Origin: Octopus vulgaris
Lineage: Eukaryota
Length of the DNA: 64,000 nucleotides
NCBI GenBank assembly: GCA_951406725.2
Contig: OX597825.1
Location: 85,250,001 to 85,314,000, forward strand
Direction of reading: 5' to 3'
Below are positions 53,318-54,231 of the stretch, in pieces. Position 1 is the first letter of the stretch, and the number at the start of each line of letters is the position of its first letter. Made by a program: the position numbers and the translations under genes. Under the pieces are notes generated by a model. It saw only the letters and a list, made by a program, of their open reading frames with translations, did not search any database and was not told the origin of the DNA.

Positions 53318-53530
53318 AAATGTGACCGCGTGTGTACCGTTGGCGATTTTTTTTCCTCTGTCTTCCCTTCTCTGGATCTTTCCTTCTCCTATGTTTCCGA
53401 CGAAGAGCTCCAATCGAAACGTTAAACCCTCCTTCTTCCCTTCCTTCCTTCCTGAGCGTCCAATAATACTGTATTTGTTCCACGTCCTCGCGTTGTAGTG
53501 TTTTCTCTCTGTGTTTTCATGTTTGGATTA

Positions 53531-53534
<4 letters not shown>
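53310..53534 (+). mobile_element. 225-bp element between (TA)n tracts carrying a minimal hammerhead motif (PLE pLTR-like)
   Basis: Flanked by (TA)n on both sides; hammerhead motif at 53393-53427. Confidence 0.7.
53393..53427 (+). ncRNA. Minimal type I hammerhead ribozyme (dimer-type), variant core
   Basis: GTTT-CCGACGA-A-GA(GCTCCAA)TC-GAAAC-GTT-AAAC: stem I GTTT/AAAC, core with U4C, short stem II, palindromic AACGTT stem III. Confidence 0.6.
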
Positions 53535-53583
<49 letters not shown>

Positions 53584-53700
53584 GAGGGCATTATTATACA
53601 TAGATGCCACACGCTTAGAGGGACAAAAAGTCATTTCTACCAAAAAATTTTACTAATCCCACCGAATGCAATCTTTCAAAGCAAGACATTTAAAAGATAT

Positions 53701-53749
53701 AGACTTGTATCACCTGTGATTTCGTACTTACGTACTCCTCAGCAAGCCT
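53701..53749 (-). ncRNA. Type I hammerhead ribozyme (minus-strand copy)
   Basis: Exact reverse complement of 53878-53926. Confidence 0.9.
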
Positions 53750-53877
53750 GAACGTATCATAAATAAACGACCCTGTCTCGTCGAAGCCAAGCAACTAACT
53801 GTTCAACGTCAACGAAGCACGTGGGGGAGTTTACATATATTACATCCGGTAAATTACATCGTTTTTATGATACGTTC

Positions 53878-53926
53878 AGGCTTGCTGAGGAGTACGTAAG
53901 TACGAAATCACAGGTGATACAAGTCT
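53878..53926 (+). ncRNA. Type I hammerhead ribozyme
   Basis: Stem I AGGCTTG/CAAGTCT; core CTGAGGA; stem II GTAC-GTAA-GTAC; GAAA; stem III TCAC-AG-GTGA; AUA cleavage triplet (predicted cut after 53919). All conserved core nucleotides are present. Confidence 0.9.
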
Positions 53927-54169
53927 ATATTTTTTAAATGTCTTGCTTTGAAAGATTGCATTCGGTGGGATTAGTAAAATTTTTTGGTAGAAATGACTTT
54001 TTGTCCCTCTTAGCGTGTGGCATCTATGTATAATAATGCCCTCTATATATAAATTAATATGTTCAATAAGAAAGAATTATTTTCGAAATTTTTCTCTTAT
54101 GAGGTTTTTCATGTTATCTACCTGATAATTTCTTATTAAGATTCCTTATTAAGAAGTTGTCCTTAATTG

Positions 54170-54231
<62 letters not shown>

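Follow-up and report, generated by a model that had tools for sequence, protein, structure and literature searches.

A foldback repeat in Octopus vulgaris is probably a non-autonomous retrozyme that depends on a PLE and was primed at both ends of its target

The locus described here lies in a 64,000-nucleotide stretch of the Octopus vulgaris genome (assembly GCA_951406725.2, contig OX597825.1; hereafter, the window) and is made up of two non-coding units, each a 459-nt monomer truncated at its 5′ end, which meet head to head within a (TA)n tract (Table 1). It is best explained, with a probability of roughly 80%, as a non-autonomous, non-LTR retrozyme that depends on a Penelope-like element (PLE) and was inserted by priming from both ends of the target. 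What was observed directly comprises the monomer and its arrangement in tandem, 3′ ends at two fixed positions, 5′ ends that vary, a (TA)n target, the head-to-head polarity and a covarying hammerhead. Dependence of the whole clan (the family and its sister families) on a PLE is likely and rests on this insertion anatomy. Taken alone, the locus is what a known insertion mode ordinarily yields.

Table 1 Features of the locus, in window positions; the cut of the minus-strand hammerhead was placed by mirror symmetry
Feature	Position	Strand	Basis
(TA)n target, left flank	53535..53574	.	sequence
5′-truncated monomer, monomer positions 61–341, 'short' 3′ end	53575..53854	-	blastn vs natural monomer
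Type I hammerhead, same as that on the plus strand; predicted cut between 53708 and 53707	53701..53749	-	
Head-to-head junction of the two 5′-truncated units	53855..53863	.	
5′-truncated monomer, monomer positions 145–459, 'long' 3′ end	53859..54170	+	blastn vs natural monomer
Type I hammerhead, with cleavage predicted after 53919 (AUA)	53878..53926	+	sequence, pattern scan, covariation
Tail, ~110–118 nt, separating the short and long 3′ ends	54053..54170	+	
(TA)n target, right flank	54171..54227	.	sequence

The inverted repeat is formed by two arms of 189 nt each (53575–53763 and 53864–54052), separated by 100 nt and differing at exactly two sites (53931/53696 and 54011/53616), in agreement with the ~189-bp arms and about two mismatches of the original prediction, which had been made from the sequence of the window. 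Its report that no ORF is present is likewise borne out, the longest ATG frames comprising 29 aa in the sense and 48 aa in the antisense direction. The 100-bp spacer that it described has the right length, but consists of upstream sequence native to the monomer, as read on the minus strand. The minus-strand unit spans the left arm and most of this presumed spacer, and is 98% identical to copy L147 over 280 nt. At the junction, 4 to 9 nt, depending on the method, are assignable to neither unit. The ~120 bp past the right arm, formerly taken for unique sequence, are the tail of the family, whose pattern has 1,128 matches genome-wide and none with a reversed control. The locus is not a purpose-built foldback element, but a pair of ordinary truncated monomers joined head to head. 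No protein-coding host gene is evident among the long frames of the window (mostly simple repeats; introns possible).

The same (TA)n cluster holds a separate repeat of ~215 bp (window 53318–53536, plus strand; 92–100% in the best 40 of 1,416 candidates), which is dissimilar to the clan. This repeat contains, at about 53392–53424, a look-alike of the minimal hammerheads described for PLEs in the cited part of PMC4209133, in which an additional A precedes a stem II of 4 bp and stem III is the palindrome AACGTT. Its core is mostly CCGACGA, CUGACGA being present in one of the nine motif-bearing copies (12 copies read), and stem II is mutated in the window copy.

The genome (2.8 Gb, 227 contigs) was searched with a query composed of the spacer, right arm and extension, which gave 152 matches in the best 40 scored of 2,342 candidates. 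The family unit is a monomer of 459 nt with a GC content of 33.6%, found in tandem arrays at 455–462 nt. It comprises, in order, ~60 nt that are missing from the window, the reverse-complemented spacer, the arm and the 118-nt extension. The hammerhead core is present in the sense strand alone, no ATG frame exceeds 48 aa, and the predicted fold is branched, with 64% of the monomer paired. Genome-wide, the hammerhead pattern has 1,014 exact matches, compared with none for its reversed control. The pattern matches include sister families, which are ~70–80% identical and have monomers near 499–502 nt; stem III, the 3′ module and both ends are common to all of them. The pattern of the window subfamily has 26 matches in 16 elements, six of which contain same-strand hammerheads 457–460 bp apart; the window copy itself is without such a pair. 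Opposite arms of one element differ by only 1.5% on average (46 pairs), indicating that the family is young. Family sequence is also present in two sequencing runs labelled as two organisms; the runs taken to be RNA contain small shares of it, in short pieces of which none extends across the locus. Adjoining independent clan insertions occur in the same (TA)n tracts (L022 2046–2384, L046 1891–2449, L183 and L006 94–247), which would fit microsatellites being targeted repeatedly.

When the window was scanned in full, on both strands, for the three-stem pattern CUGANGA...GAAA...UH, the only sites were 53885 (plus) and 53742 (minus). The two motifs are identical over 49 nt, and both the complete type I hammerhead predicted in the right arm and the same one predicted on the opposite strand in the left arm are recovered. 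The motif has a stem I of 7 bp (one G–U), a stem II of 4 bp with a GUAA loop, a stem III of 4–5 bp and an AUA site. The GNRA cap described for stem II holds for the window copy, but is not kept across copies. An Rfam search of the window did not call the hammerhead. In the Infernal-type comparison that the original prediction had proposed, the Hammerhead_1 model gave the motif 10.8 bits (E 6.9), far under the gathering threshold of 34. The minimum-energy fold of the isolated 49-mer is not the hammerhead, which lies 2.6 kcal/mol away. For L008, a natural monomer, the minimum-energy fold contains the hammerhead, whether the molecule is linear or circular.

Covariation of stems I and II among the sister families supports the assignment of the hammerhead as a real ribozyme. 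In 19 aligned clan members, 95.8% of the stem cells are paired (at most 44% in slid controls), with two-sided changes in 8 of 15 stem pairs (five of seven in stem I and three of four in stem II). None of 500 shuffles scored as high on paired cells plus covariation, and 84 of 500 reached eight pairs, in a test that overstates significance because the 19 sequences are related. The core is invariant in these members, in part by construction of the search pattern. At least eight variants of stem II, 12 to 31 nt in length and with matched changes in stem I, are present in L092–L139 and share one constant stem III and 3′ module. In these copies, the ribozyme varies while the presumed protein-recognition region stays similar.

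Copies of the family end at two positions. In the set of 152 matches, 67 of 71 outer ends are located at the short (monomer ~341–349) or the long (~459) position, and 64 of 71 run into TA repeats. The fetched loci were tallied as 55 single inverted and 48 direct-only elements, with two compound clusters left unclassified. Head-to-head polarity is seen in all 55 single inverted elements, and the close opposite-strand hammerhead pairs among the first 100 listed pattern matches are arranged minus-then-plus in 12 of 12 cases (hand count). The inverted elements comprise 45 with one long and one short end, two with two long ends, none with two short ends and eight with one unclassified end, a distribution suggestive of priming in pairs, from two start sites. 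Selection by the DNA query or by the tail pattern is biased to long ends, and the fair subset is that of elements chosen by hammerhead, some of which were picked for opposite-strand hammerheads or a rare stem II and not for end type. In this subset, 22 inverted elements are long+short, none has ends of the same type and two are unclassified; the direct-only copies have a short end in 16 cases, a long end in 11 and another end in two. With independent ends, ~48% of the inverted elements would be expected to be mixed, and the chance of 22 mixed among 22 is near 1e-7 (hand calculation). The inverted copies dropped by the script filters (L010, L022, L044, L047, L139 and L154) are all long+short by eye.

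The 5′ ends and junctions are less regular. Among the 45 long+short elements, arm lengths range from 29 to 979 nt, and both whole ribozymes are kept in about 20 (hand count). Two of 90 arm 5′ ends fall within −3 to +5 of the ribozyme cut, and cleaved linear monomers are therefore not evidently the template; arms that exceed one monomer and cross the cut site point to an uncut multimer or a circle. Overlaps of at least 3 nt are found at 5 of 28 junctions, compared with 9.8% in the null (one of 29 was not anchorable), and extra bases at 13 of 28, partly owing to mismatch with the reference. Eighteen private variants are common to the units of one element, in 14 of 42 elements. When compared with the nearest other element, an arm is closer to its partner arm in 16 of 46 pairs and further from it in 24.

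These observations can be accommodated by the following route. A tandem source copy would be transcribed, and the hammerhead would cut the tandem RNA into monomers, which might be circularised. A PLE RT/GIY-YIG protein, supplied in trans, would cut (TA)n, and the two cut target ends would prime one cDNA each, one from the short site and one from the long. These cDNAs would stop at variable points and then be joined by repair, with the hairpin and the second ribozyme arising as by-products. The tail (window 54050–54170) has a predicted fold of two hairpins that beats 200 of 200 shuffles (z −3.8), and these hairpins, lying between the start sites, are a candidate element for protein binding. A point against this reading is that both 3′ ends are located in AT-rich patches that resemble the target, whereas the PAc start site is reported, in the cited part of PMC11167929, to be non-homologous to the target.

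A stronger form of the proposal, held tentatively and at a little under even odds, is a near-obligate rule by which one PLE insertion primes the short site at one target end and the long site at the other. Under such a rule, a dimeric PLE protein would hold one RNA at both start sites, the tail and the head-to-head inversion would be two marks of one double-priming step, and direct-only copies would represent events in which one primer failed. In L1 twin priming, both target ends also prime cDNA, which inverts the 5′ part; there, the position of second priming is internal and variable, and overlap between the two parts is minimal. In the clan, by contrast, both starts are fixed and the arms overlap extensively.

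The inversion could also arise, within the same class of element, if one first-strand cDNA folded back and primed itself, with capture of its second strand at the short end, in the TA-like patch. This is unlikely, albeit with several observations in its favour. One arm is nested in the other in 27 of the 45 long+short elements (short in long in 25, long in short in two), and 11 of the 45 junctions are symmetric within 10 nt, compared with a permutation mean of 2.5, a result that snap-back fits equally well. In the cited part of PMC3846280, inverted junctions of rotifer Penelope elements are described as palindromic, and self-priming with an antisense template is the preferred explanation. However, neither arm is nested in the other in the remaining 18 elements, which would need a further template switch; they include the window copy, in which the short arm extends to monomer position 61 and the long arm only to 145. 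Short-start cDNAs are common (16 of the 29 direct-only copies chosen by hammerhead), yet none of the 55 inverted elements is a short+short foldback. For the symmetric subset, snap-back of a single cDNA is a possible explanation; it does not account for the 18 elements without nesting, for which priming from both target ends is preferred.

The presence of two identical intact hammerheads on opposite strands had led the original prediction to a built-in switch and to a comparison with viroid-like RNAs. The foldback over its full length folds at about −376 kcal/mol, a further point for such a reading. Avsunviroid-type and satellite circular RNAs have hammerheads in both polarities, a likeness that the clan shows at this one locus. 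A selected riboswitch- or viroid-like element, in which cleavage competes with the hairpin and which possibly replicates as RNA, is nevertheless highly improbable. The antisense strand of the monomer is without a CUGANGA...GAAA core, so that the unit has one polarity and the second is a genomic inversion provided by a second copy of the unit; the branched monomer is not predicted to be rod-like. In addition, one ribozyme is missing from about 25 of the 45 inverted copies (hand count), junctions and arm lengths vary freely, and the arms, differing by about 1%, are so alike that their intact state requires no selection.

Folding estimates also disfavour a switch. Forcing the hammerhead costs 3.0–4.6 kcal/mol with the unit's own upstream sequence alone, and 84–88 kcal/mol, as an equilibrium estimate, in the read-through transcript of either strand, where the hairpin blocks the ribozyme. 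Read-through of the foldback is thus predicted to be an off state for the ribozyme, not a balance. Arm pairing begins 14 nt before stem I, and the hairpin should therefore prevail during transcription too. Were the unit to contain a promoter of its own, cleavable RNA could still result. For circle production, the window copy is probably a dead end, since it has no pair of same-direction ribozymes and its read-through RNA would fold back first. If the locus is read through, it is a possible source of dsRNA substrate for ADAR or Dicer, and hundreds of such hairpins, if read through, would supply long dsRNA.

Long near-perfect inverted arms, the absence of an ORF and TA-rich flanks are also features of a MITE, which would here have terminal inverted repeats of ~189 bp, a TA target and a hammerhead by chance. 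This is extremely improbable, given that the two ends are unlike (one short, one long), that the range of arm lengths leaves no fixed TIRs, that 48 of the 103 tallied copies are without the inversion, and that copies are tandem and 5′-truncated. Hardly credible, too, is a foldback chimera produced during assembly or library preparation. Palindromes beside (TA)n are error-prone and the window junction is without a spanning read contig, but the arms are asymmetric and unlike at two sites, the same polarity and end rule recur at 55 distinct loci with differing junctions, and the layout is a published PLE trait in the cited parts of PMC8557442 and PMC3846280.

The clan element is non-coding, without an RT plus GIY-YIG ORF, and PLEs are present in the same genome. 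No autonomous PLE with this repeat was found in 44 GIY-YIG loci (the best 150 of 6,136 GIY-YIG candidates were scored), in ~60 pattern loci or in the 41 loci of a single old PLE family. The earlier description of the locus, as a PLE derivative that is non-autonomous and has a partial inverted copy, is supported by the family structure and by published PLE layouts, although these loci yielded no autonomous partner. It had been anticipated that the novelty would be lower if all other copies were simple pLTRs of a known PLE, and the copies found genome-wide largely lower it in this way.

A young PLE family in the same genome (L078 430–5672, also L079–L082) has many intact 781-aa frames comprising an RT plus a GIY-YIG at the C terminus, with a CxxC motif before the nuclease, direct terminal repeats of 456 bp that are 99% alike, and a (TA)n target. 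Its upstream frame of 333–479 aa is without a Pfam match (one tested), and a canonical hammerhead was not found in this family. It also ends in (TA)n, but was rejected as the partner, its 456-bp terminal repeat being dissimilar to the monomer. A protein search returned only relatives of this type; those deposited under the names of Thiodiazotropha and a Solemya gill symbiont, on contigs of 2–4 kb, are probably mollusc host DNA within symbiont assemblies. Clan sequence is placed behind a decayed PLE 3′ end in L118/L122 and in L195. The latter is one copy of an older PLE family (L229–L240) with a CA-rich 3′ region extending >1 kb past the nuclease domain, and hosts a decayed clan element. It was rejected as the partner since this is a nested insertion, the module being present in 0 of 29 other and 0 of 12 extended copies of its PLE; L118 was judged by eye alone.

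In the parts of the literature cited here, endonuclease-bearing PLEs (PMC8557442, PMC3846280 and PMC11167929) resemble the clan in partial tandems, 5′ truncation, a tail at one end, a head-to-head truncated copy, an AT-rich or (TA)n target and the position of the hammerhead, upstream of their 3′ ends. Craig et al. 2021 (PMC8557442) describe partial tandems, an adjacent inverted 5′-truncated copy, a microsatellite bias and a tail of 30–40 bp, often at one end only. Head-to-head inversions, with a tail that is optional on one inverted pLTR, are described by Arkhipova et al. 2013 (PMC3846280). Frangieh et al. 2024 (PMC11167929) report a tail bounded by two RT start sites, both target strands being cut and extended, a predicted dimer, and insertion in vitro without the need for ribozyme cleavage. 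The clan differs from the PLEs of these sources in that it is without an ORF, its tail is three times longer (110–118 nt versus 30–40), its hammerhead is full canonical rather than minimal, and no matching autonomous pLTR was found.

How the tandem and inverted structures of PLEs originate is described as undefined in the cited part of PMC8557442. The rule of one short and one long end is a countable prediction for PLE integration, which is listed there as unresolved. If true, it would make the clan a test bed for the origin of these structures, with the merits of about a thousand young copies, an easily scored 110-nt tail and a short non-coding template.

The clan, a cephalopod retrozyme and a strict one-short-one-long rule appeared in no title or abstract opening found in a mostly non-subscription literature outside Repbase and Dfam. 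The retrozyme clan is apparently undescribed for this host group, and species tables or Repbase/Dfam may list it. Animal retrozymes were defined by Cervera and de la Pena 2020 (PMC7229834), who report circular RNA for a mussel family and propose PLEs as mobilisers, and are argued by Li, Clavereau and Pollet 2026 (bioRxiv 10.64898/2026.07.22.740005) to derive from pLTRs. As in the metazoan non-LTR retrozymes of the cited parts of these two sources, the clan has tandem monomers that are non-coding, each with its own type I hammerhead, and low GC (33.6%, under the 45% criterion), dispersed monomers and dimers, and PLEs in the same genome. Its monomers, however, are 459–502 nt in length rather than 170–400, stem III has 4–5 bp rather than the usual 1–2, and its arrays are short, with up to about three units seen. 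Inversion with two defined 3′ ends, present in about half of the sampled clan insertions, did not appear in word searches of PMC7229834 and the bioRxiv report. The clan thereby joins animal retrozymes to the insertion anatomy of PLEs: retrozyme-type monomers bear a PLE tail and inversion, which provides structural support for PLE-driven mobilisation.
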